From an uncultured virus (IMG/VR IMGVR_UViG_3300042691_027621) (Duplodnaviria > Heunggongvirae > Uroviricota > Caudoviricetes), in IMG/VR virus record IMGVR_UViG_3300042691_027621, positions 1 through 64,000 of that record: a stretch of DNA of 64,000 nt; one strand, 5' to 3'. The notes beneath the pieces were generated by a model that had not been told where the DNA came from, made no database searches, and worked only from the letters and a program-made list of their open reading frames with translations. This document shows, in pieces, positions 14,893 to 63,797 of the stretch. The number at the start of each line of letters is the position of its first letter. Position 1 is the stretch's first letter. A program made the position numbers and the translations under genes.

Positions 14893-17800
14893 TTAATTGC
14901 TAGTGACTTGAAGGATCTTGGTGCTGATGTCATTGGCATTGCGTTGTTCACGTACCAGTTCAGAAATCATGTCAATCAATGTTTTGGTCTGTGCTACGTT
15001 TTCTTTTATTGATTCTGCTACCACATCATCGTTGTATCTGCTTTGTAGATCGACAACATCTGCTTCAGTTTTGGGGCCGGATTTTTTGTCTTCTTCTCCG
15101 TAGTTTTCTAGCATTTCCCGATCAAAACCTTTGGCCATTAACTCTGTTTTCATGTCGCTCAGTTTAGCAAACATCTTGGCTTGACTGGCAGCTACTACAC
15201 TATCAACATCTTGGTAAGTGTCTTTGCCAGTGTCGCCTTTCAAAAATTTCAAATTGTCAACTTGAGATTGAAATTGAAAATATTTCTTGATTTCATCGGG
15301 GAAATCCACAGGAATTCTGTTGCCCTTGAGCGGCATAACTGCTTCAGCGGTGCCACCTTCGCCAATAACAGCTGGTGTACCTCCAGGAGTAGGTTGCACA
15401 ATACCGCCTTCGGCTAGCATTTGCACATGAGGATGATCCTTAGCAATGAAAGGACGGAATAAACCAGCATTGGCCAACAGTTCGTCCATGGGCCCTTTGC
15501 TTTTGCCCATTCCTGCTACGCTGATGTCTACAGCATTGCCAACACCATGCAAACTGCCTTTGCCCGAACCTTTGACATTGTAAGTTTTGCCTTGGTAAGT
15601 TATTTCTTGATCATCTTTGGGAGCAGCAGGCATGTGAACACCCGGTTCATTGAGTATGTGGCCCCTGACCCAGAGTTCTGCCTGCTTCTGGTCTGATCTA
15701 TAAGCACTGTTTACATCTACTGATTTTCCAGTTGACTCTGCAAATTTTTGCAGTCTTGAAATCATTTCATTATTAAGACCAGACATGTCTGCGTTTGGAC
15801 CTATTTTGAGACTACCTTTGCCCCCGCCTTGTGCCTGACCTGCTGGCGTGGGTTGCCCTGGTTGACCGTCAGGTGCGCCTGCTGACGGAGGCGGTGGGGT
15901 CGAACTGCGTGTAGGTGCAGTAGTAGGAGCTGCGCCACCACCTGCTGCACCCCCGCCGCCTGCTGGCACTGCTCCTCCACCTGCTACCGGGGCCAACTTG
16001 CCTTTGAGCGTTGATATCTGTCCTGATCTTGTGTCAATACTAGCTTTGGTGTCAGCAATCTTTTGTTCAACTTTAGCAGTGCTAACTCCTTTGGCAGCAA
16101 GATTGGCTCTTTCTTCATTGAGTTTGGCCAGACGTTCAACTTCGCTGACATTCATGGTTTCCAGGCGAGCCAACTCTCCTTGATCAAGTCGTTGTTGTTG
16201 CCTTACTTTGCGTTCTTCTCTAGCCGCGTCTGCAATTTTCTTTTCTTGATCTAGCAGCGACTGCGAAGCCTTGGCATATTCTTCTTTGTTCTTGGCAATT
16301 TTTTCTTCAAGAGGTTTGAGCTCTTCACCGTACTTGCCTGCACGTTTGGCATCTTTGAGAGATTTTTCGTCAGCTTCTAATTGCTTGGCCAACAGATCTG
16401 CACGTTCTTGCAAAGGTTTAGCAACATCTCTTTCTTTGCTAGTAGCCGCCGCGGCCTTGGTTTCTTGTGCAGTTTTTGGTTGTTCTTTTGCTGGTTCCTT
16501 GACTCCAAGTCCAAAGAAGCCTAGTACTTTGTTCAATGCTTTGCTTAACATAGTAAACTGATCTGCTAGCACATTGGTAACGTTGCCTAGCTTTTCAGTC
16601 ACGCTCAGAGCCTTGTCAATGCCCACAAACACAGCATCTTCCATTTTCTTGTTGAGAGCTTGCTGTTTTTTAATGTTTTCAGCATATTGGTCAGTGATAC
16701 CATCGGCAGCTTTGCCACCGTCACGACCTTGTTTCTTCATGTCTTCTCGAATTTTTTCAGCTTCGGCTGCATTGTCTTTTTGTGTGGCCAATCCTAGCTC
16801 TGCGCCTTCACTGATTTTGAGCATGGTCTCTTCACCTACACCCATTTGGTATAGGTAGTTCATTTCTTTGGTCACTCGGCCTACAGCTTTACCAGTTTGA
16901 TCAAATGCTTCAATGCCTTTGAGTTGTCCTGCTTTTTGTTTGTCTAGGATGTTCAGAGCTTCGCCTTGTGTGCTTTGATACAGTTTCATAGCTGCATCAG
17001 TGCCCATCATGCCTGTGGCCAAATCTCCGTAACCAGTTGCGGCTTCTTTGCTGCGTTTGTACAGCATCTTGTAAGTCACTTCCATTTCGTCAGCGGCTGC
17101 AATCTGTTTGGCATCACCCGAGTTGCGCATTTCCTCCAGCTTGGCACGGAAACGCTGTTGACTACGTGCTGCTTCCAGAGCTTGCTCCTGCTCTTTACGA
17201 CTCATACCTGTGAGTTGAGTCAGTGCGTCTTGTTCTTTAAGATACTTGTTGGCACCTTCAGCTAGCTCCTTGGTAGTTAAATTCTGTGATTGCCCTATGC
17301 GACTTTGCAGGCGCAGATACTGCATGCTGGCATCGTTGATTTCTTGTTGAGTGTAACCAGCTGCCATCAAGCTCTTGCGATAGGGCTCCATGGCTGCGCC
17401 CATGTCTTCAAATTTCTTGCGACCATCTGCTACACTGCCAGCAAACAGGGTCAAATCACCTGCGTTGTCTGCTATTAGCCCAACATAGCTGTCAAGTTCG
17501 TTCATTGACAAGCCTAGTTTTTTGGCTCCTTGGTACACCCCTGTCATGCCATCGCTGGCAGCACCGCCAGCTTTGGCTAATTTGCTGTAGCCATCATAAA
17601 TTTTATCAGCCATGACATTGGCTGCTTTGATGTATTCAGCTGTGGCTGCTGTAACTGCGGTAAGACCAGCAATTAAACCTTTGATTAGTGGGCCGCCAGG
17701 AATCAGCAGTGTAAGAGCAGCACCTGCTAGTTTAGCAGCATTGGATAGCTCATCAATAGAACTGTTGAACGCTGCGGCACCTTTTTTACCCTCGTACATG

Positions 17801-18021
17801 GCCTTGGCGCCTTCTACGCCAGCCTTGGCTACACTGGTTAGCGCATCAGCAGCCGCGGTTGTGCCTTTGGTAAAATTTGTAATGCCATGTTTGCTTTTCA
17901 TTGCAGCATCTTGCACTTCGTCAGCAGTGCTCTGATGCATACGGCCATACAATTCCATCTCCCGGTTTACCCGGCTCATTAAGTCTGCTAATTCTTGTGC
18001 TTGCTGATTTACGTCGGCCAT
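14893..18021 (-). CDS. Tape-measure-like tail protein with an M15 (LAS-family Zn) peptidase domain
   Basis: Long Ala/Lys/Gln-rich helical region and a Pro/Gly linker, then SAYRS..Q, SLHGVGNAVDIS (SxHxxGxAxD) and DHPHVQ, then LAEGGIV...AVIGEGGTAEAVMPL. Confidence 0.8.
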   Translation of the reverse strand: MADVNQQAQELADLMSRVNREMELYGRMHQSTADEVQDAAMKSKHGITNFTKGTTAAADALTSVAKAGVEGAKAMYEGKKGAAAFNSSIDELSNAAKLAGAALTLLIPGGPLIKGLIAGLTAVTAATAEYIKAANVMADKIYDGYSKLAKAGGAASDGMTGVYQGAKKLGLSMNELDSYVGLIADNAGDLTLFAGSVADGRKKFEDMGAAMEPYRKSLMAAGYTQQEINDASMQYLRLQSRIGQSQNLTTKELAEGANKYLKEQDALTQLTGMSRKEQEQALEAARSQQRFRAKLEEMRNSGDAKQIAAADEMEVTYKMLYKRSKEAATGYGDLATGMMGTDAAMKLYQSTQGEALNILDKQKAGQLKGIEAFDQTGKAVGRVTKEMNYLYQMGVGEETMLKISEGAELGLATQKDNAAEAEKIREDMKKQGRDGGKAADGITDQYAENIKKQQALNKKMEDAVFVGIDKALSVTEKLGNVTNVLADQFTMLSKALNKVLGFFGLGVKEPAKEQPKTAQETKAAAATSKERDVAKPLQERADLLAKQLEADEKSLKDAKRAGKYGEELKPLEEKIAKNKEEYAKASQSLLDQEKKIADAAREERKVRQQQRLDQGELARLETMNVSEVERLAKLNEERANLAAKGVSTAKVEQKIADTKASIDTRSGQISTLKGKLAPVAGGGAVPAGGGGAAGGGAAPTTAPTRSSTPPPPSAGAPDGQPGQPTPAGQAQGGGKGSLKIGPNADMSGLNNEMISRLQKFAESTGKSVDVNSAYRSDQKQAELWVRGHILNEPGVHMPAAPKDDQEITYQGKTYNVKGSGKGSLHGVGNAVDISVAGMGKSKGPMDELLANAGLFRPFIAKDHPHVQMLAEGGIVQPTPGGTPAVIGEGGTAEAVMPLKGNRIPVDFPDEIKKYFQFQSQVDNLKFLKGDTGKDTYQDVDSVVAASQAKMFAKLSDMKTELMAKGFDREMLENYGEEDKKSGPKTEADVVDLQSRYNDDVVAESIKENVAQTKTLIDMISELVREQRNANDISTKILQVTSN

Positions 18022-18026
18022 GCTTG

Positions 18027-18060
18027 GTTACCTATAAGTAGAAGTATATTTATAGGTGAC
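18027..18060. promoter_or_regulatory. Symmetric pair of overlapping late promoters for divergent genes
   Basis: GTTACCTATAAGTA (+, 18027-18040) and GTCACCTATAAATA (-, 18047-18060) form a 12/14 inverted repeat. Confidence 0.7.
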
Positions 18061-18062
18061 AA

Positions 18063-18905
18063 ATGAACCAAACTGCTAACCCACTACGTCAATATTTTCG
18101 TCGTCCCAGCATCTATCTCAGACTGCCCAGTGGCGGAGATTTTTGGCCTCCGGAGTCGCTGAATTCTACGCAAAACGGTGAGCTTCCAGTTTTTCCCATG
18201 ACTGCCATCGACGAGATCACATATCGCACTCCAGATGCACTGTTTAACGGAGAAGCTGTGGTGTCAGTGATTCAAAGCTGTATTCCCAGCATTACCAACG
18301 CCTGGGACACTCCCGGATCAGACCTCAACAGTATCTTGGTTGCTATTCGAATTGCCAGCTATGGGCATGAATTGGAAATGGCATCCGTTTGCCCGGCCTG
18401 TCAAAACGAAGGTGAATACAAACTAGATCTACGCACAGTATTGGATCAACTACAAACTCCTGATTTCAAGTACAGTGTCAATCACGGTGATCTGCAGATA
18501 TTTTTCCAGCCCATTAGCTACCGACATCAGCAGGAAACCAATGCTACACAATTTGAAGAACAAAAAACAATTCAAATGATTCCTGGATCAGACCTGCCAG
18601 ATGATGAGAAAATAAAGAGACTCAATGCTGCACTCAAGCGCATCACGGAACTCACAGTAAATGCGCTCAAACACAGCATTGCTGGTATTAAAACTCCTAG
18701 TGCACTGGTCACTGAACCAGAATTTATTCAAGAATTTTTGAACAACTGTGATCGAACATTGTTTAACCAAATTAGAGATCATGTGATTGAACTGCGTCAG
18801 GCCAGTGAACTCAAGCCCTTGCAGATCAAGTGTAACAATTGCAACCATGAGTACAGTCAACCATTGACCTTGGACATGGCCAGTTTTTTCGCAGCCGCCT
18901 CCTGA
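18063..18905 (+). CDS. Baseplate hub/tail assembly chaperone (T4 gp26-like)
   Basis: NPLRQYFRRP..YLRLPSGG, ELPVFPMTAIDEI, DLNSILVAIRIASYG, CPAC and CNNC Zn motifs; ends LDMASFF like gp26. Confidence 0.75.
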   Translation: MNQTANPLRQYFRRPSIYLRLPSGGDFWPPESLNSTQNGELPVFPMTAIDEITYRTPDALFNGEAVVSVIQSCIPSITNAWDTPGSDLNSILVAIRIASYGHELEMASVCPACQNEGEYKLDLRTVLDQLQTPDFKYSVNHGDLQIFFQPISYRHQQETNATQFEEQKTIQMIPGSDLPDDEKIKRLNAALKRITELTVNALKHSIAGIKTPSALVTEPEFIQEFLNNCDRTLFNQIRDHVIELRQASELKPLQIKCNNCNHEYSQPLTLDMASFFAAAS

Positions 18906-19120
18906 CCTTAAGCTACGAAGAAATTGACAAGCTGGTCCAACAAATGGATCAGGAGGCTGACTCATTGCGCAAACAAGGACTCAAAATGTCATGGTACATG
19001 CGAGGAGGAGCTTCTTACGAGGATGTGATGAACATGAGCTATCATGAACGTGCCATGCTCAATGAGTTGATCAAAGAAAACTTAGAAACCACACAAAAAT
19101 CCAAACTACCATTCTTCTAA
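18884..19120 (+). CDS. Unannotated gp51-like chaperone segment in the -1 frame (own ATG at 18944, or reached by frameshift at 18884-18890)
   Basis: Manual translation FFRSRLLTLSYEEIDKLVQQMDQEADSLRKQGLKMSWYMRGGASYEDVMNMSYHERAMLNELIKENLETTQKSKLPFF*. Its TAA overlaps the next ATG. Confidence 0.75.
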   Translation, partial: FFRSRLLTLSYEEIDKLVQQMDQEADSLRKQGLKMSWYMRGGASYEDVMNMSYHERAMLNELIKENLETTQKSKLPFF

Positions 19121-19626
19121 TGTTAGATATAGAAAAAGTTAAACGAGATATTGAGCAGTGGATTGTGAACTTTGTAGAAGTTCCGCACCCTGCGTTGGGC
19201 GGATTTCCGCCTTGTCCTTACGCCCGTAGTTCACGACTTAAAAACAGTTATGATGTGATCATTGGCACAGATCCTTACTATGATCTCAATAATCAAGCAC
19301 GCCACGGCATGGGCGACAAAGAAGTTGTTATATATGTTTATGATCCTGTGGAATGGCCACATGACCAGTTTGCAGCAAATATAGATCAGGCCAATCAAGA
19401 CTTTTTGCTGGCTGCTGACTTGTTGTCTTTGGAAGATCATCCTGCTGATCAAGAGATAGTCAACGGAATTTGTATGAATCAAGGCACTTATGCACTAGCA
19501 CTAGTGCAAAGTGTAAGCGATCTTGATGCCAAAGCACGCTTGATGGCACGCAAAGGCTTCTATGATACTTGGCCGGAAGACTATCTTACAGCACTATTTC
19601 AACACAGAGAGGATCCTCGAAAGTGA
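19120..19626 (+). CDS. DUF1415-like protein
   Basis: W..NFVE......PCPYAR, LEDHP and LVQ...DL motifs; translationally coupled on both sides. Confidence 0.55.
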   Translation: MLDIEKVKRDIEQWIVNFVEVPHPALGGFPPCPYARSSRLKNSYDVIIGTDPYYDLNNQARHGMGDKEVVIYVYDPVEWPHDQFAANIDQANQDFLLAADLLSLEDHPADQEIVNGICMNQGTYALALVQSVSDLDAKARLMARKGFYDTWPEDYLTALFQHREDPRK

Positions 19627-20054
19627 CGTACCAGTTTGCCAGAATCAATTTAGAAAAAACAACATACCAGCCCCAAGTGGATTGGTTCTATATCACTGAG
19701 CCTGATATTGCTGAACTGCAAGACATTTATCGAACCTACTGCATCTACAAACACTTTGGCAGTGTGATGCCGTTGTTTGACAGCCAGTTCACAGAACCAG
19801 GTATGGATCTCATTGGCTACAGGGATCAAGGCCAACTGGTGGCGTTTTCAATGATGAAACGCTACGATGACAAAAATTTATTAGCCGCACAATTTGCCTG
19901 GAACTATCGCAAACCCCGATTACGTTTGGGAATTTCAAGTTTACAGACAGAATGTGCAATCTACAGACAGCGAGGATTTGAATACTTGTATTTGGATCAA
20001 GCGCACTTGTACAAACAGGACCTCGAAGGTTTTGAAATACTAGGACCACTATAA
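19623..20054 (+). CDS. Aminoacyl-tRNA-protein transferase-like GNAT protein (ATE_C/Bpt-like)
   Basis: GQLVAFS...AQFAWNY..PRLRLG..SLQTE....RQRGFEYLYL...YKQ...FEIL parallels the ATE1/Bpt C-terminal domain. GTG start at 19623 overlaps the upstream TGA. Confidence 0.6.
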   Translation: MTYQFARINLEKTTYQPQVDWFYITEPDIAELQDIYRTYCIYKHFGSVMPLFDSQFTEPGMDLIGYRDQGQLVAFSMMKRYDDKNLLAAQFAWNYRKPRLRLGISSLQTECAIYRQRGFEYLYLDQAHLYKQDLEGFEILGPL

Positions 20055-20389
20055 TGGACATTTACACAATTTGGGCAGACAAAGAAGGCGACATCTCAGA
20101 CTTGGACTGGGTCAACGGCATGAAAAGTTTCTTTGATCATTTGAAATCAGAAGGCCGGATGGAAGACTATCGCATCACTAGATGCAAGATGGGTTTTAGG
20201 TCAATCGCAGACATGCCGGAATGGATGATACTGATGGAGTTCCGAGACATGGCGCAGATGGACTCAGCATTTAAACGTGTTGCTCCTCTTGAAGGCGAAC
20301 TAGAAACCAAACACAAGTCATTCAATCAGTTTGTTTCTGGAACCATACAACATGCACTGTTCCGTGACTGGCCGGACCAGAATCTATGA
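20054..20389 (+). CDS. DUF6614-like small alpha/beta-barrel protein
   Basis: HLKSEG...YRITRCKMGF...MEFRDMAQMDSAF...H...ALFRDWPD pattern. Confidence 0.55.
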   Translation: MDIYTIWADKEGDISDLDWVNGMKSFFDHLKSEGRMEDYRITRCKMGFRSIADMPEWMILMEFRDMAQMDSAFKRVAPLEGELETKHKSFNQFVSGTIQHALFRDWPDQNL

Positions 20390-20760
20390 AAGTCATGGCA
20401 CCTATATCAGTAGGTGAACTGATTGACAAAATCACCATTCTAGAAATCAAACAACTCAGTGCTCGCACAGATCAACAGCGTGGCAACATTGATCGTGAAC
20501 TAGAACAGCTGATCAACATACTTGACTCATTGAGTCTGACTGAAGAGATTGCTGATTTACGAGCCAAGCTACGCGGGGTCAATCAAGCATTGTGGTACAT
20601 TGAAGACTACAAACGCCAATGCGAACGAGCTGACAGTTTTGAAGCTGGTTTTATCACGGCCGCAAGACAAGTTTATATCAAGAACGATCAACGTGCTGAC
20701 ATCAAACGCAAGATCAACGAGCTGTGTGGCAGTGATATCGTAGAAGAAAAAATTTACTAA
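20386..20760 (+). CDS. DUF6165 family protein
   Basis: PISVGELIDKITILEIK, VNQALWYIED, ARQVYIKNDQRADIKRKIN and GSDIVEEKIY motifs. Confidence 0.8.
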   Translation: MKVMAPISVGELIDKITILEIKQLSARTDQQRGNIDRELEQLINILDSLSLTEEIADLRAKLRGVNQALWYIEDYKRQCERADSFEAGFITAARQVYIKNDQRADIKRKINELCGSDIVEEKIY

Positions 20761-24565: not shown

Positions 24566-26035
24566 TCATTTGCACTGTCTAAAATACCGCATCAATTTTT
24601 GTCTATCAATTTTTCTACTTACAGTGTACTCGATTGGATTAAGATGCCTGGCAATTTTGTTAACCTTGACATGGTCAAAATGCCTGTCAAGGTACTGCAA
24701 AAACTCATGCTCGGCAGATTGACTTGGCGCCCATACGCTGAGATACAACTGTTGTTCTTCGTTGTCGATTACAACTGTAGCTCCGTCTACGCCAAACAAA
24801 TCATGAACCATCTTGTCAATGTCACCAAGATTTATCCACTCGTCACCAATTCTGAAATTAGTACCGCGGCCGTAAAAATAATAGTCGTTGTTTATTTTTT
24901 CAAATTTATCTGAACTGGTCTTCCACTGAGTTTCTCCTAGACCAAGAGCTCTAACATAGAGAAAACCGTCAATGATATCAAATTCAAAAAAATCATCTAG
25001 CTGTGGCCCAATGCGATTGGTAATATATTTGTCAGGATCAGTGTCTTGGTCAACGACCTTGACCAAAAATCCATATCCAATGGTAGTATCACCAAATACA
25101 TTTCGAATTGATGCAATATTTTTTTCTTGCATGAGTCGAACACATTGTTCGTTGACATAGAACAACGTAACAATATCCAAATTAAAATCAATCTTTGGAG
25201 TCTGTTCTAAGAAATTGATTAGTTTTTCTGAGCTATAGAGTAAGATTTTGTTGATCTGATGGTCAGTCACATATTTGCACAAATTTTTGTAGTAATTTGA
25301 ATCAGGATAATGGTTAAACACGTAGTGGTTTTTGCTTGTTATAAAACTAGGCAAAAAGTGATAACACATACTAGCACCGTGATGTAAATTATTGGTATGT
25401 AAAGTGTTTTCGTTGGGTTGAAAATTCAAATGTTTACACAGTCGCAGAGTTTGCAAAACAATTTCCTGATGAGTAATTTTGATTTGTCGCGGCAATCCAG
25501 TGGTCCCGCCTGTGGCAGTCCACACAGCATCTACATCGGGAGTTGCAAACGCAGTATTGAGTATTCTCGATACTAGACTATGATTTTGAATTTGATAGTT
25601 GTCAAAGTCTTGTTCAGTTATTATGACATTGCAATTGAGTCGATTCCGTTCGTGATCCCAGAAAGAATAGAAATCTTTGTCGTTGGGATCAGTTTGTCTG
25701 CTGTAAACTATGGCAAAATCAACTTTACCGTGCATGGTCATTCTATGACTAGTTGCATCTTCCAAACTGTAAGCATGCGGCCAATCTACAATCATGATCA
25801 TGCCTAATTCCCACACAGCAAAAACTGCACTATAGTAGTATGCGTTGGTGAGATTAAATTCTAACATCACTGTCTGCCCTGGCCGAGCCTTGTATTTTTC
25901 TACCAGCAGTATTTTCCAGTAGTCAATCATCTCACAGAATTCATCTCTGTCGATTTGAAAAATTTCTCCTGTGTTTAGATTTTCTTGGTGCAGAACAAAG
26001 TCTGCAGATATTAGATTCCTCGAAAGAATGTTCAT
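24566..26035 (-). CDS. Adenylate-forming (ANL/AMP-binding superfamily) enzyme, divergent
   Basis: TATGGTTGLPR (A3), NLHHGAS (A4), FGDTTIG (A5), WKTSSD (A7), YGRG...GDEWINLGDID (A8) and RKIDRQKL (A10). Confidence 0.75.
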   Translation of the reverse strand: MNILSRNLISADFVLHQENLNTGEIFQIDRDEFCEMIDYWKILLVEKYKARPGQTVMLEFNLTNAYYYSAVFAVWELGMIMIVDWPHAYSLEDATSHRMTMHGKVDFAIVYSRQTDPNDKDFYSFWDHERNRLNCNVIITEQDFDNYQIQNHSLVSRILNTAFATPDVDAVWTATGGTTGLPRQIKITHQEIVLQTLRLCKHLNFQPNENTLHTNNLHHGASMCYHFLPSFITSKNHYVFNHYPDSNYYKNLCKYVTDHQINKILLYSSEKLINFLEQTPKIDFNLDIVTLFYVNEQCVRLMQEKNIASIRNVFGDTTIGYGFLVKVVDQDTDPDKYITNRIGPQLDDFFEFDIIDGFLYVRALGLGETQWKTSSDKFEKINNDYYFYGRGTNFRIGDEWINLGDIDKMVHDLFGVDGATVVIDNEEQQLYLSVWAPSQSAEHEFLQYLDRHFDHVKVNKIARHLNPIEYTVSRKIDRQKLMRYFRQCK

Positions 26036-26976
26036 TGTTGCGAGCTAATGTTAAATTTGGAAATAATTGCGTTGTACTGTGTTTGATCGTTCTTGACTTT
26101 TTGTTTAAAATTGTTCAACGACATGGTGTGTAAAGAAATGTAGTCAAATCTTGACATAGTTTCTTGTACCCGTTGATCTTTTACTGCGTCACGTAGATCT
26201 CTTTCCAGTTGTTCTTTTACTGCTCGGGGAGCAGAGCTTGGCACATAAAAAGCACACCATGCAATTAGAGTAGTGATATTTTTACCAGTTAGTTCTTTTA
26301 CTGTTGGAATGTTAGGATAGCGAGAATCTCGTTGCTCGGCAGCAATAGCAAACCATTTGTTTTTGCCAGCTTGGACCATGCTTTTGGTTGTTCCGGTACT
26401 GCCAAATCCATATGCTACTTGTTTGGTAGAAATATCAGCTTGCCAAGTACCAAAATCTTTATAAGGTACGTGAGTGGCCTTGTCTGTGAACAACAAACCA
26501 TATTCAGCTCCTAATATATGACCCACTGAACCAATGTTCCAAGAGCTATAGGAAGGATTTTTCAAAATTTCTTGTTTAAGATCGTTGTAGGTCTGAATGC
26601 TAGCTGATGCAAACAAAGCCATGTTAGCGTCCAATACTGGAGCAACAGGTTCCAATCGACTAATAGGTTCGCTGTTCTTGAACAAAGAAGAATATGCAAC
26701 CACAGTGCCGCCGTCTAAAAAACCAATGGTGTAGCCGTCAGTGGGTTGATCATTGATATGATTCAACCCAATAACTCCAGCGCCCCCGGGTTTGTTTTCT
26801 ACAATCACAGGTTGTTTCCATTTTTCAGTTAGGACTTCAGAAATTTTTCTTGCCATGACATCAGGACCTGAGCCTACTCCAACTGACAAGACAATTTTCA
26901 CAGGTTTCTCGGGCCATGTTTGTGCATTAACAGCAAGAGTTGCAGTCAATGATAGAAGTGATAAAAATTTTTTCAT
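26032..26976 (-). CDS. tctC: Tripartite tricarboxylate transporter substrate-binding protein (Bug/TctC family)
   Basis: Signal peptide, then WPEKPVKIV..GSGPDVMAR, VIVENKPGGAGVIG, DGYTI, HVPYK and RYPNIPTVKE motifs. Confidence 0.9.
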   Translation of the reverse strand: MKKFLSLLSLTATLAVNAQTWPEKPVKIVLSVGVGSGPDVMARKISEVLTEKWKQPVIVENKPGGAGVIGLNHINDQPTDGYTIGFLDGGTVVAYSSLFKNSEPISRLEPVAPVLDANMALFASASIQTYNDLKQEILKNPSYSSWNIGSVGHILGAEYGLLFTDKATHVPYKDFGTWQADISTKQVAYGFGSTGTTKSMVQAGKNKWFAIAAEQRDSRYPNIPTVKELTGKNITTLIAWCAFYVPSSAPRAVKEQLERDLRDAVKDQRVQETMSRFDYISLHTMSLNNFKQKVKNDQTQYNAIISKFNISSQQ

Positions 26977-28987: not shown

Positions 28988-29887
28988 ATGCTTACAGCAC
29001 CGGACTATTACTATTATCAACAACAGCAACAGGCAAACGCCTACAATGCTTATATTCAACAACAGCAACAAGCCCAGCAACAAGCCCAGCAACAGGCCTA
29101 TCTGCAACAACAAGCCTATCTTGCACAACAACAAGCATACTATGCTTATCAAGCTCAACAGCAACAAATTGCGCAACAACAAGCCTATCAACAGTATTTA
29201 CAACAGCAACAACTGGCCGCGCAACAAGCAGCTCAAGCAGCCGAACAGGCTCGTCAGTCTGCTGAAAACGCCGCTATTGAACAGGCTCGTGCTGCCCAGG
29301 CCGCACAGGTCGCTGCTATTCAGGCCGCTGCCCTGGCTGCTCAAGACATACTGGCTGCGCAGACTGCACAGGCTGCACAAGCCGCTCAAGATTTGGCAGC
29401 CGCACAGATACAGGCACAAATTGCTGCACAACAGTCAGCTGCCGCTGCCGCTGCTGCCGCGCAACAACAACAACAATTACAACTGGCATTGCAGGCACAA
29501 GGACAAGAACAATTTGCTGCTTCGGTGGCTGTGGCTGTAGGACAAGCATCCAACAGTGTGACAGCCAGCATTGAACAAGCTCAGGTAGCTGCTGGTCGTA
29601 CTCTGTTTTTGATTGATGTGTCTGACATAGTGGTCACTCAACCTGAACAGAGCTTCTATTCAGATCCGCAGTACACAGCGCAACAACCAGTAAACGTGCG
29701 AATTGGACCCACTTCCACAGTATATGATCCCAGTGTGCCCACGGTTACAACATCAGCTGCAACCACAGGATCAGTAAACACCAACTACAGTATAAATGTT
29801 GGATCAGATTACAATCTGGCTTTGCAACAGCTGGACAACCAAATCTACGCAGGACCTGCGGTTAGACTAACACCTGTTGCAGTGTAA
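28988..29887 (+). CDS. Gln/Ala/Tyr-rich low-complexity protein of unknown function
   Basis: TAAATA (28964-28969) and an AGGAG SD precede the ATG; 299 aa with QQQAY repeats. Confidence 0.65.
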   Translation: MLTAPDYYYYQQQQQANAYNAYIQQQQQAQQQAQQQAYLQQQAYLAQQQAYYAYQAQQQQIAQQQAYQQYLQQQQLAAQQAAQAAEQARQSAENAAIEQARAAQAAQVAAIQAAALAAQDILAAQTAQAAQAAQDLAAAQIQAQIAAQQSAAAAAAAAQQQQQLQLALQAQGQEQFAASVAVAVGQASNSVTASIEQAQVAAGRTLFLIDVSDIVVTQPEQSFYSDPQYTAQQPVNVRIGPTSTVYDPSVPTVTTSAATTGSVNTNYSINVGSDYNLALQQLDNQIYAGPAVRLTPVAV

Positions 29888-60704: not shown

Positions 60705-61013
60705 ATGGATACTGATGCCCTTGTTGCTCACGCACGAGCAAGATTTAATCATGCTGTTGCAAAACGGCTACTAAAAGAAAAATACCTGGCCAAAATGACC
60801 TTTGCTTATCGCGGTGGCATGTGGCGTGCTGGTCCTGAACTGCTGGCTGTGTTACAAACTGTGCCAGTAGAAGATGAAGTGGTTATTGTTGACTTATACG
60901 AAAACCCTGTTAAAATTGATCCACTAGAACTACAGCACTTGGCATTTGACCGTTGGCAAGAACAAATGAATGCCTGGCACGTGGAGTTTGAAGAAATGAG
61001 CAAACGTCGATGA
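60705..61013 (+). CDS. Hypothetical protein
   Basis: 102 aa; GGMWRAGPELL...IVDLYENPVKI; ATGA-coupled to the next gene. Confidence 0.7.
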   Translation: MDTDALVAHARARFNHAVAKRLLKEKYLAKMTFAYRGGMWRAGPELLAVLQTVPVEDEVVIVDLYENPVKIDPLELQHLAFDRWQEQMNAWHVEFEEMSKRR

Positions 61014-61813
61014 CCACCGGCGCACTGATATTTGCATTTAACAATGAACAAACCGACTACCTTGCTATGGCTCGATGGAATGCTGCAAACATTCGTAGGC
61101 ACCTTAACATTCCAGTGGCCGTGGTCACAGACCAAACAGGATCTGATATTGTGGAAGGATTTGATCACGTCATTCATGCAGACCCCAAAGCGGGAGGAAC
61201 CCGTTATTTCCAGGATTATGATGCCACTGTTACGTGGCATAACGCAGGCCGAGTTGATGCTTATAGTTTGTCCCCTTGGGACTGCACACTAGTATTAGAT
61301 GCTGATTATGTTGTGGCCAGTGCTGCACTGCGCAATGTAATCAACGCTGATCGTGACTTTATGTGCTATCGCTGGGCCACAGACATGACCACTGGACGGG
61401 AGTTAGAAGCTCTCAACACATTTGGGCGCCATCAAATGCCCATGCGTTGGGCCACAGTAATGATGTTCCGTAGATCAAACACAGCACAATATATATTTGA
61501 CTGTATGCAAATGATTCAAGACAACTGGCAACACTATCGCGATTTGTATGCCATAGACAAAAGCACATATCGCAACGACTTTGCATTGAGTATTGCTCTG
61601 GGCATTGTAAGTGGACACACCAACCATGTAAGTGATATTCCATGGCCCATGATGAGCGTCATGCCTGAACATACTTTAAAGCAAGTGGACGCTGACAGTT
61701 ACGAGATTACATTTGTAGATGCTGATCGAAAACCTCAAACAGTAGGCTGGATTGGTTTTGATTTCCATGCCATGGGCAAACGTCATTTGGAGAATATCGT
61801 TGCGTCCTGTTGA
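61010..61813 (+). CDS. Putative GT-A fold glycosyltransferase (GT8-like)
   Basis: DYLAMA, VAVVTD, LSPWDCTLVLDADY (DxD), WATVMMF and RNDFALSIA motifs. Confidence 0.7.
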   Translation: MTTGALIFAFNNEQTDYLAMARWNAANIRRHLNIPVAVVTDQTGSDIVEGFDHVIHADPKAGGTRYFQDYDATVTWHNAGRVDAYSLSPWDCTLVLDADYVVASAALRNVINADRDFMCYRWATDMTTGRELEALNTFGRHQMPMRWATVMMFRRSNTAQYIFDCMQMIQDNWQHYRDLYAIDKSTYRNDFALSIALGIVSGHTNHVSDIPWPMMSVMPEHTLKQVDADSYEITFVDADRKPQTVGWIGFDFHAMGKRHLENIVASC

Positions 61814-62564
61814 AGAACAAGGTTACATTATTCCTGCGTTCAATGTAGACAAGATAGACTACGTTGATTGTGCTCGTACCTTGGCAAAAACTTTACTGGC
61901 ACAACATCCCAGGGCACGTATCTGTTTGCTGACCAACGAACCCTATGCAGCGGACTATAGTTTGTTTGCCTACACACACGTTGTAGACATCAATCGAGAA
62001 AATCCCTATGCCAACGACCCTTTGGTATTTGCTCAAACACCCTTCCGCGAAACTATCAAGCTAGAAGCAGACATGCTGATTGCCAGTCCAATAGATCACT
62101 GGTGGACCATGTTTAGGCATCGTGATGTGGTGTTGTCCACTGGCTGCCGTAACTGGCGCGACGAAATCAGCACAGCTCGAGACTACCGAACAGTTTTTGA
62201 TCAAAACAATTTGCCAGACGTGTACAATGCTATTACCTATTGGCGTCGCAGTGAAATGGCCAAAGAGTTCTTTGACACTGTGCGCAATATATTTGTTCAT
62301 TGGACAGAATATCGTCGGCTCATCAAATACTCGCCCGATGTACCAGATACAGATTTGGTCTATGCCATGGCTGCACAGGTTATAGGGCCTGAATTGGTTA
62401 CTATTCCAGGATCGCCCTCAATTGTACACATGAAACAAGCACATGCAGGCACAGCCACAAAAGACTGGACACAAGAATTGGTTTGGGAAATGAATCCATT
62501 GAGAATCAATACCGTTGCTCAATGGGGTGCGTTCCACTATAATGTTAAAAGGTGGCAACCATGA
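61800..62564 (+). CDS. Putative GT-A fold glycosyltransferase (paralog of the upstream gene)
   Basis: DYVDCARTLA, TPFRETIKLEADM, LPDVYNAITYW, TDLVYAMA and HMK motifs; probable TTG start at 61800 after GGAG. Confidence 0.65.
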   Translation: MRPVEEQGYIIPAFNVDKIDYVDCARTLAKTLLAQHPRARICLLTNEPYAADYSLFAYTHVVDINRENPYANDPLVFAQTPFRETIKLEADMLIASPIDHWWTMFRHRDVVLSTGCRNWRDEISTARDYRTVFDQNNLPDVYNAITYWRRSEMAKEFFDTVRNIFVHWTEYRRLIKYSPDVPDTDLVYAMAAQVIGPELVTIPGSPSIVHMKQAHAGTATKDWTQELVWEMNPLRINTVAQWGAFHYNVKRWQP

Positions 62565-62887
62565 TGACCCCAGATGAATTCTTTGGTGTATTAGAAAGTA
62601 TGCCACAACCTCAGTCTGTATTTTATAGACTGTATTATGAAGGTGAACGCCCACTATTCTACAGCATGGAAGACTTGCCCGGTACATACATTGAAGTTAC
62701 CCCTGAACAGTATGCTAGGAGCCAAATGAAAGTGCGTATTCGCAACGGAAGGATAATTCCTATCACTTGGCAAACGGCACAAAAACTCGCACCCAGCAAC
62801 GCAGGCACACTGTGCCATTTGCAAGATGTTGCTATTGTTGTAAAAGAAAACGGAACCTATTGGAGCAAACGGACTTATGAAAGTTGA
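62561..62887 (+). CDS. Hypothetical protein
   Basis: FYRLYY..G...FYSMEDLPG.YIEV motif; coupled to both neighbours. Confidence 0.65.
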   Translation: MMTPDEFFGVLESMPQPQSVFYRLYYEGERPLFYSMEDLPGTYIEVTPEQYARSQMKVRIRNGRIIPITWQTAQKLAPSNAGTLCHLQDVAIVVKENGTYWSKRTYES

Positions 62888-63797
62888 TATCGCAGATTTA
62901 GACTGCATTTACTTAACCTATGACGAACCACAAAAAGAAGAGTTTTGGATCAAAATTCGCAACATGGTGCCTTGGGCAAAACGGGTGGATGGCGTTAAGG
63001 GCAGCGATGCTGCTCACAAAGCGGCGGCGCAGGCCAGTGACAGTGATAGATTCATTCTCATTGATGGCGACAATCTCCCCAACCCGTCGTTTTTTAATCA
63101 GACGCTTGTTCTTCCTAATGAAGAATACAAGAACGCTGTGTTCCGGTGGCGGGCACGTAATCACATTAACGGTTTGATGTACGGCAACGGAGGCCTAAGT
63201 TCATGGACAAAGGAGTTTGTGATGAACATGCAAACTCATGAAGCCACAGACGGACGAGATGAAACTCAGGTAGAGTTTTGTTTTGATCCCTTGTATTGGC
63301 CCATGCATGATTGTTATTCAACAACTTACCCCAACGGTGATGATTTCCATGCGTGGCGTGCAGGATTTCGAGAAGGCGTTAAGATGTGCCTGCAACGCGG
63401 TCGCAAACCCACGGTAGAAGAATTTAAAAATCAAGTGCTACGAAACTTAGACAATCTCACAATCTGGCACAACGTGGGCACAGATGTAGAATATGGCGAG
63501 TGGGCCATCGCTGGCGCACGTCAAGGCACCTATATGACCATGCTTACTAATTGGGATCATACCTTGGTGCAAAGTTTTGATGCCTTGGCCGAACTATGGC
63601 TCACAGTGAAAGATGGCCAACCAAGATTGCTCAGTAATCGGTTGGCCGAGGACTTGCACACACAATTGGATCTGCCAATGGCCATCCTAGAATGTGAACA
63701 AAGCGCATTTTTTAAACATCACTATCGTTTGAACTGGCACAATCAAGGTGTTATGGTTCGAGAAATTGACGTTATTCGCAAGATAGAAGGTTGGTAA
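62877..63797 (+). CDS. Putative GT2-like glycosyltransferase
   Basis: YLTYDEP, RVDGVKGSDAAHKAAA, FILIDGDN (DxD), NGLMYGNGG and AWRAGFREGVKM motifs. Confidence 0.7.
   Translation: MKVDIADLDCIYLTYDEPQKEEFWIKIRNMVPWAKRVDGVKGSDAAHKAAAQASDSDRFILIDGDNLPNPSFFNQTLVLPNEEYKNAVFRWRARNHINGLMYGNGGLSSWTKEFVMNMQTHEATDGRDETQVEFCFDPLYWPMHDCYSTTYPNGDDFHAWRAGFREGVKMCLQRGRKPTVEEFKNQVLRNLDNLTIWHNVGTDVEYGEWAIAGARQGTYMTMLTNWDHTLVQSFDALAELWLTVKDGQPRLLSNRLAEDLHTQLDLPMAILECEQSAFFKHHYRLNWHNQGVMVREIDVIRKIEGW

Follow-up and report, generated by a model that had tools for sequence, protein, structure and literature searches.

A conserved gene module behind the tail chaperone of large uncultured T4-like phages, with a predicted thiolate-haem oxygenase and a putative ATE/Bpt-derived GNAT domain

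Three overlapping genes (ORF1, ORF2 and ORF3) form a conserved module in large uncultured T4-like phages; they bring together divergent representatives of enzyme groups already known, in a combination undescribed in the literature searched. The module was analysed in a stretch of 64,000 nucleotides (the window), which is part of a 75-kb viral record and contains T4-like portal, baseplate and SbcC genes. ORF1 is predicted to be a thiolate-haem oxygenase of the AglA group, ORF2 is, judging by its model and by sequence profiles, a lone second-GNAT domain from the ATE/Bpt lineage, and ORF3 is an accessory protein of the module. The best reading, which we put forward tentatively, is that of a late tailoring module following the logic of AglC and AglA in the biosynthesis of argolaphos. 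No paper on the module was found in the literature searched, which lay largely outside subscription papers and included the accessible parts of PMC2922099 and PMC12801897.

Close relatives of the window are carried by contigs of up to 320-347 kb, two of which have terminal repeats. The rightward unit begins with the hub/chaperone gene and ends with the module, and it is followed by a variable stretch and by leftward GIY-YIG and SbcCD genes (Table 1). The arrangement given in the original prediction, with the three ORFs placed directly behind the tail chaperone and joined by TAATG (chaperone stop/ORF1), GTGA (ORF1/ORF2) and TAATG (ORF2/ORF3) overlaps, is confirmed by the sequence; the ORF3/ORF4 overlap is ATGA. 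The dN/dS values for ORF1, ORF2 and ORF3 are around 0.01-0.08 in the five pairs computed, and thousands of relatives exist (2568 among 2600 candidates for ORF1 and 2458 among 2469 for ORF2, counts in which the far range of the families is under-sampled). Therefore, ORF1-ORF3 are real genes under purifying selection.

Table 1. Features of the module and of its upstream region (positions in the window)
Feature	Position	Strand	Basis
T4-late-promoter-like octamer TATAAGTA, upstream of the chaperone operon	18033..18040	+	sequence reading
T4 baseplate-hub/tail assembly chaperone family gene; the unit begins here	18063..18905	+	PF12322 E 2.7e-15; phrog_150 E 7e-15
Second chaperone frame, ATG at 18944, 58-aa ORF; stop overlaps ORF1 start	18884..19120	+	read from sequence
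ORF1, 168 aa, predicted cysteine-ligated haem oxygenase of the AglA (YqcI/YcgG) / DUF6875 (P422) / DUF1415 fold group; Cys32 candidate axial ligand	19120..19626	+	model, profiles
ORF2, 143 aa, GTG start, putative ATE/Bpt-derived single GNAT domain	19623..20054	+	sequence profiles, model
ORF3, 111 aa, DUF6614, very conserved accessory protein	20054..20389	+	PF20319 E 5e-23
ORF4, DUF6165, ATGA-coupled to ORF3	20386..20760	+	PF19662 E 2e-10

The octamer upstream of the chaperone operon presumably corresponds to a T4 late promoter, to whose consensus we liken it, and of 122 distinct 60-mers taken from upstream of the hub gene, 62 contain ATAA[AG]TA, compared with 2.8 in shuffles. Tail assembly chaperones use programmed frameshifting, and the slippery T-TTT-TTC at the end of the hub gene (18884-18890), from which the -1 frame can be read on into the 58-aa ORF, resembles such a site. 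It is likely that a -1 slip at this place gives access to the second chaperone frame, which yielded no family match above cut-off; the FFRxRLL frame is open likewise in loci L012 and L258. No clear ribosome-binding site is seen in the sequence before ORF1. Because of the late-promoter-like octamer, the slippery site and this start, expression of the module is likely to be late, low-level and coupled to translation of the tail chaperone. Between the tape-measure-like gene and the hub gene there are 41 bp (18022-18062), in which late-promoter-like octamers stand back to back, and the tape-measure-like protein (14893-18021) carries a VanY/M15 peptidase domain.

The original prediction had proposed gene-neighbourhood co-occurrence as a check, and the genes do stand together elsewhere. 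The 283 fetched loci with an ATE-like gene represent 166 distinct proteins, and adjacency was counted where at least 2 kb of flank was available, loci with shorter flanks being excluded. ORF1 adjoins the ATE-like gene in 108/108 short-form and 24/24 long-form cases (132/132 distinct cases in total), in a set gathered by similarity to ORF2 or to the long form, drawn from related rather than independent phages and with 107 of the 108 sharing the tail position. ORF3 accompanies the short form in 105/109 loci and the long form in 21/24. The long ATE-like phage form (221-235 aa) fills the slot of ORF2 on the opposite strand, converging on ORF1 and mostly diverging from ORF3 across about 40 bp (L258-L303). 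The linkage is kept through this strand change and also in two non-tail contexts, the only 2 of the 132 loci with enough flank that are devoid of tail context. In these two loci (L056 and L296) four genes are found together away from the tail genes, among what we take to be 7-deazaguanine pathway genes. Each of five near-complete genomes contains one ATE-like gene and one ORF1.

ORF1-ORF3 probably belong to one shared pathway. The contrary view, in which the ORFs are co-located at a transcription-unit junction and move as a block, appears improbable. It would account for the convergent orientation of the long-form gene and ORF1, the former being the last gene of the opposite transcription unit, for the 7 of 133 loci from which ORF3 is missing, for six bacterial DUF6614 loci with neither partner nearby and for dS values that are lower than in the hub gene and suggest block exchange, but the linkage outlasts inversion, trimming and relocation and a single enzyme family provides 28 of the 29 genes inserted in the operon. 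In comparisons with L005, L015, L033 and L042, ORF2 and ORF3 have much lower dS values (0.44-1.15) than the hub gene, for which they reach 1.9-2.1 or are saturated, which suggests that the module has been exchanged between phages. Neither ORF2 nor ORF3 has a match among cultured phages, and ORF3 has none in plasmids. A pattern scan of GTDB with alignment A1 gave no confirmed match among 113 stretches, a scan that missed the diverged copies in L085-L087; four ORF3 matches in GTDB are located on MAG contigs resembling mis-binned phage. The GTDB MAG contigs L085, L086 and L087 carry the gene order of the module phages and are probably mis-binned phage DNA.

The model of ORF1 (pLDDT 94) was compared with 999 realigned chains. 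Four AglA entries lead with Z scores of 7.4-7.7 over 148-150 of the 168 residues (rmsd 3.7-3.8), and AglA alone exceeds Z 4, the next fold being at 3.9; however, the sequence identity is 8-9% and Z 7.7 remains below 8, which calls for caution. With Foldseek nothing was found under E 0.001, and AglA occupied rank 41 (E 0.35) with the top TM-score among the matches listed. In profile comparisons ORF1 reaches a probability of 86% with DUF1415 (16 bacterial sequences), 54% with DUF6875 (2 sequences) and 1% with YqcI (4 sequences only). The DUF1415-like label initially given to ORF1 holds at this level, where the CP[YF]A and HP motifs are aligned, but not in Pfam, in which ORF1 matches neither DUF1415 nor PF08892 and the best result is DUF6875 (E 0.008, 16.7 bits for a cut-off of 24.5). 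One distant relative of ORF1 does reach the DUF6875 cut-off (24.6 bits).

Cys32 of ORF1 is invariant (93/93), and in the alignments it coincides with the cysteine that DUF1415, DUF6875 and YqcI proteins have in CP/CV. The N-terminal helix, the CP cysteine motif and the HP motif of P422 (DUF6875) and DUF1415 also align with ORF1, although the RxGxVCP and tryptophan-clamp motifs given for P422 in the accessible text of 10.64898/2025.12.11.692455 are missing from ORF1, which carries GGxxPCP instead. AglA and the DUF6875/P422 proteins are described in the available parts of their sources as cysteine-ligated haem oxygenases (PMC12866846 and 10.64898/2025.12.11.692455, respectively), and for this reason a haem ligand motif is the best reading of the CPYAR sequence of ORF1, in preference to a substitute for the ATE zinc site. 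That ORF1 binds haem is thus very probable. Its substrate, on the other hand, is not fixed by the fold group, because tryptophan is oxidised by the P422 enzymes, which belong to it (10.64898/2025.12.11.692455, accessible text). Distant relatives of ORF1 occur in five cultured phage records in which no ATE-like gene was detected, and a 2OG-Fe(II) oxygenase lies one or two genes upstream in 2 of 3 inspected cultured-phage loci with such a relative. Bacterial DUF1415 proteins (L333-L346, L354 and L355) have the CP cysteine and HP motifs common to P422 and YqcI/YcgG proteins, so DUF1415 may be another thiolate-haem family. In one locus (L240:2804-4496) a divergent second ORF1 paralogue and a gene that by eye resembles an arginine methyltransferase are inserted before ORF1.

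ORF2 had been described as ATE_C/Bpt-like, and what stands of this description is the lineage. Its score against Pfam ATE_C is 22.1 bits, below the cut-off of 25 (E 2.5e-4), and the direct profile comparison with Bpt gives 1%; the connection passes through the long form, which compares with ORF2 at 99.65% and with Bpt at 79%. Of the long forms, two score above the ATE_C cut-off (27.3 and 28.4 bits) and one below it, and in the ESM Atlas ORF2 falls with ATE_C/GNAT clusters. ORF2 corresponds to residues ~57-195 of the long form and, as had been noted from its length, has no N-terminal ATE part. In the phylogenetic tree the short form is one clade (100/100), but the root is not fixed and there are long-branch warnings, so that derivation of the short from the long form is not given by the tree. 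Among 4950 candidates for fused or longer forms of ORF2 there was one match, of half length and on a homoserine dehydrogenase, which was rejected as a likely chimera; the lack of a fused form among them is weak evidence.

The fold predicted for ORF2 is a GNAT (pLDDT 88.5). The top Foldseek matches are the aminoacyl-tRNA-dependent synthases Sba18 and Sbb17 (PDB 9WQY and 9WQX; E 3e-6 to 1e-5), whose structures were solved with streptothrisamine, and VipF, MprF, aaPGS and ATE1 (E 4e-5 to 1e-4) are also among the matches listed. Realignment shows that the model fits the second domain of tandem GNATs, as found for Sba18/Sbb17, MprF/aaPGS and FemX, which are two-domain enzymes of at least 285 aa whereas ORF2 is a single domain. 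The Z scores to acyl-CoA and tRNA-dependent GNATs range from 12.5 to 14.5 (VipF 14.5, NMT 14.3, MprF 14.3, L-PGS 13.7, FemX 13.6), and since both kinds of enzyme tie at Z 13.5-14.5, the fold does not name the donor of ORF2. When ORF2 and alignments A1-A3 were searched by sequence against solved structures, no match had an E value below 0.79.

ORF2 has in common with Bpt/ATE1 (Pfam ATE_N + ATE_C) the lineage, the GNAT core and the retained LG..E..G..YL..YK pattern, whose C-terminal Tyr130-Lys131 is present in 38/38 short forms and likewise in 20/20 Bpt. However, it is around 90 residues shorter and acidic (median pI 6.1 in its family compared with 8.6 in Bpt), and it has lost several elements, all of these losses being common to the long form. 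The zinc cysteines (CxxC) and a GFRRSG-like sequence are absent from all 38 short forms, but are found in 20/20 and 18/20 Bpt proteins, respectively. The segment of the tRNA helix contains 2 K/R over a length of 27 aa in ORF2 and 7 K/R over 37 aa in Bpt (medians), and the long helix is absent from the model at the position of the basic helix of Bpt. According to the accessible part of PMC10115844, ATE1, FemX, L-PGS and LFTR use this helix to bind the acceptor arm of tRNA, and a zinc finger holds the substrate cleft of ATE1 open. By its anatomy, as far as sequence and model tell, ORF2 is not an ATE1/Bpt member; it may work like ATE1/Bpt all the same, perhaps as an oligomer.

It had also been suggested that the Cys/His-containing neighbours supply the missing ATE N-terminal domain, ORF1 and/or ORF3 being subunits of a split transferase. 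The tight translational coupling would suit such an enzyme, and so would the acceptor site of ORF2, which may need completing by something else since ORF2 matches just the second of the two domains in tandem-GNAT enzymes. Nevertheless, this idea is not supported and seems highly improbable: ORF1 and ORF3 show no ATE_N homology, their profile matches to Bpt are under 1%, CxxC is found in 0/93 and 0/28 of them, the predicted fold of ORF1 is a different, AglA-like one, relatives of ORF1 exist without ATE, and the 24 of 24 long forms that keep an N-terminal part still have ORF1 alongside.

As for the donor, acetyl-CoA GNATs have a pyrophosphate loop known as motif A (R/Q-x-x-G-x-G/A). The original prediction was to be abandoned if the structure matched an ordinary acetyl-CoA GNAT without the basic tRNA-binding helix; the helix is indeed lost, but the CoA-binding loop is absent too, with motif A in 0/38 short and 0/17 long forms. 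We slightly favour a charged tRNA as the donor of ORF2. The alternative that ORF2 no longer depends on tRNA, either acylating an amine from acyl-CoA or an acyl-carrier or acting as a binding module, would still leave the operon as a tailoring pathway with ORF1. It gains from the acidic protein without basic helix and from the second domains of VipF and NMT, which tie for the top Z, VipF covering ORF2 over 148 residues vs 197 for MprF, but we consider it unlikely in view of the missing motif A, the YK kept in all forms and the two long forms above the ATE_C cut-off.

The partners of the module point to guanidino chemistry. Among 136 distinct trios, the genes inserted inside the operon encode an amidinotransferase in 28 of 29 cases and another protein in 1. 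These amidinotransferases belong to several subfamilies and are inserted at either junction; the L018 insert matches HsvA, AGAT, SxtG and inosamine amidinotransferase, and the HxD and GGxHC motifs are kept in 37/38 and 31/38 of the amidinotransferases examined. An in-operon copy was found in 17 of 84 trios, most being without it. Amidinotransferases are also encoded elsewhere in 5/5 near-complete genomes, often several of them, which means that they are also common island genes. In the genomes G001-G005, at least one full amidinotransferase and weaker matches are located in variable islands of each.

Tagging of proteins for destruction, as first proposed, survives as a minor rival. In this proposal ORF2 aminoacylates protein N-termini to give N-degrons for ClpS/ClpAP, perhaps after oxidation of the target by ORF1. 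ATE/Bpt ancestry, the ATE1 structures among the Foldseek matches and the single copy in each of the five near-complete genomes are in agreement with it, but GFRRSG and the zinc finger, a determinant of the ATE1 cleft in the available text of PMC10115844, are absent (0/38), and the amidinotransferase inserts would be left without a role; we judge it improbable. It is likely that the module builds an oxidised arginine-like group on its target and not a tag for destruction.

The closest known system is the pair AglC + AglA (AlpF/AlpO + AlpD) of argolaphos from Streptomyces monomycini, formed by a tRNA-fed GNAT ligase and a YqcI/YcgG thiolate-haem guanidine hydroxylase (PMC12866846, PMC8976061, the latter with the gene cluster table, both as partly accessible). 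There, AglC with ArgRS, tRNA and Arg produces AMPn-Arg, which is then hydroxylated by AglA (PMC12866846, available part). ORF1 shares the AglA fold in its model. The argolaphos proteins are larger (AglC, likened to ORF2 by description, has 342-356 aa vs 143 aa, and AglA 274 aa vs 168 aa), and the phage loci inspected show no phosphonate genes, have amidinotransferase and DUF6614 as partners, and are viral and tail-linked.

By this logic, ORF2 would transfer an amino acid from charged host tRNA to an amine, and the predicted thiolate-haem oxygenase ORF1 would then act on the product of ORF2 and N-hydroxylate a guanidino group there. The guanidino group could come directly from Arg-tRNA or from an amidinotransferase, and ORF3 would be accessory to this pathway. 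As a first guess, ORF2 may use as acceptor a small amine or an amino sugar that belongs to the virion or the cell surface, since there are sugar-modifying genes nearby and the top Foldseek matches act on an amino sugar. A bolder version, which we hold to be rather doubtful, is that a widespread group of large phages has its own secondary-metabolite-type pathway. In it, a single-domain transferase would draw amino acids from host tRNA while lacking the helix employed by all solved relatives, and a viral thiolate-haem oxygenase would convert the product to an N-hydroxyguanidine, located on DNA or at the surface of the virion.

The likely late promoter, and the two modules placed among putative 7-deazaguanine pathway genes, would also be compatible with hypermodification of phage DNA after replication, an aminoacyl group being added and then amidinated or hydroxylated. 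Nonetheless, tail context is missing from only those two of the 132 loci, and the ORF2 protein is acidic, with neither a basic cleft nor an HTH-like insert in its model. The precedent is Mom of phage Mu, also a phage GNAT fed by charged tRNA (Gly-tRNA; PMC13219725, accessible text), which has both of these elements and acts alone on DNA. Mom is not among the fold matches listed for ORF2, and we regard DNA modification as quite unlikely.

The DUF6614-like assignment first made for ORF3 is clear, as the protein scores 81.7 bits against a Pfam gathering score of 25. A search of NCBIfam gave no match. The six bacterial members of DUF6614 found in 301 genomes have neither an ORF1 nor an ORF2 partner within 1.5 kb. 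Matches of ORF3 to coproheme decarboxylase were discounted (E ~1), and Druad1 was rejected as a lead for DUF6614, being in the accessible part of 10.1101/2024.04.14.589459 a protein of 44 aa labelled by HHpred alone. ORF4 (DUF6165) accompanies the module in 5 of 80 loci and is not a fixed member.

If the preferred tailoring pathway is true, it would be a second way, beside Mom, by which phages divert charged host tRNA from translation, and ORF2 would offer a minimal scaffold for studying tRNA recognition by such transferases. Viruses would then be added to the range of the AglA/P422-group thiolate-haem oxygenases, DUF1415 would gain a lead to its function, and the N-hydroxyguanidine would be a viral modification not described in the papers searched. 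Even under the rival explanations, thousands of conserved phage proteins obtain a fold assignment.

Some other features of the window deserve mention. Between SbcC and SbcD (24566-26976) there are inserted genes for an AMP-binding enzyme and for a solute-binding protein of the TctC family, and a 299-aa ORF of low complexity, rich in Gln/Ala, is located at 28988-29887. At 60705-63797 there is a run of ORFs resembling glycosyltransferases by eye, of which the two scanned gave no Pfam match.
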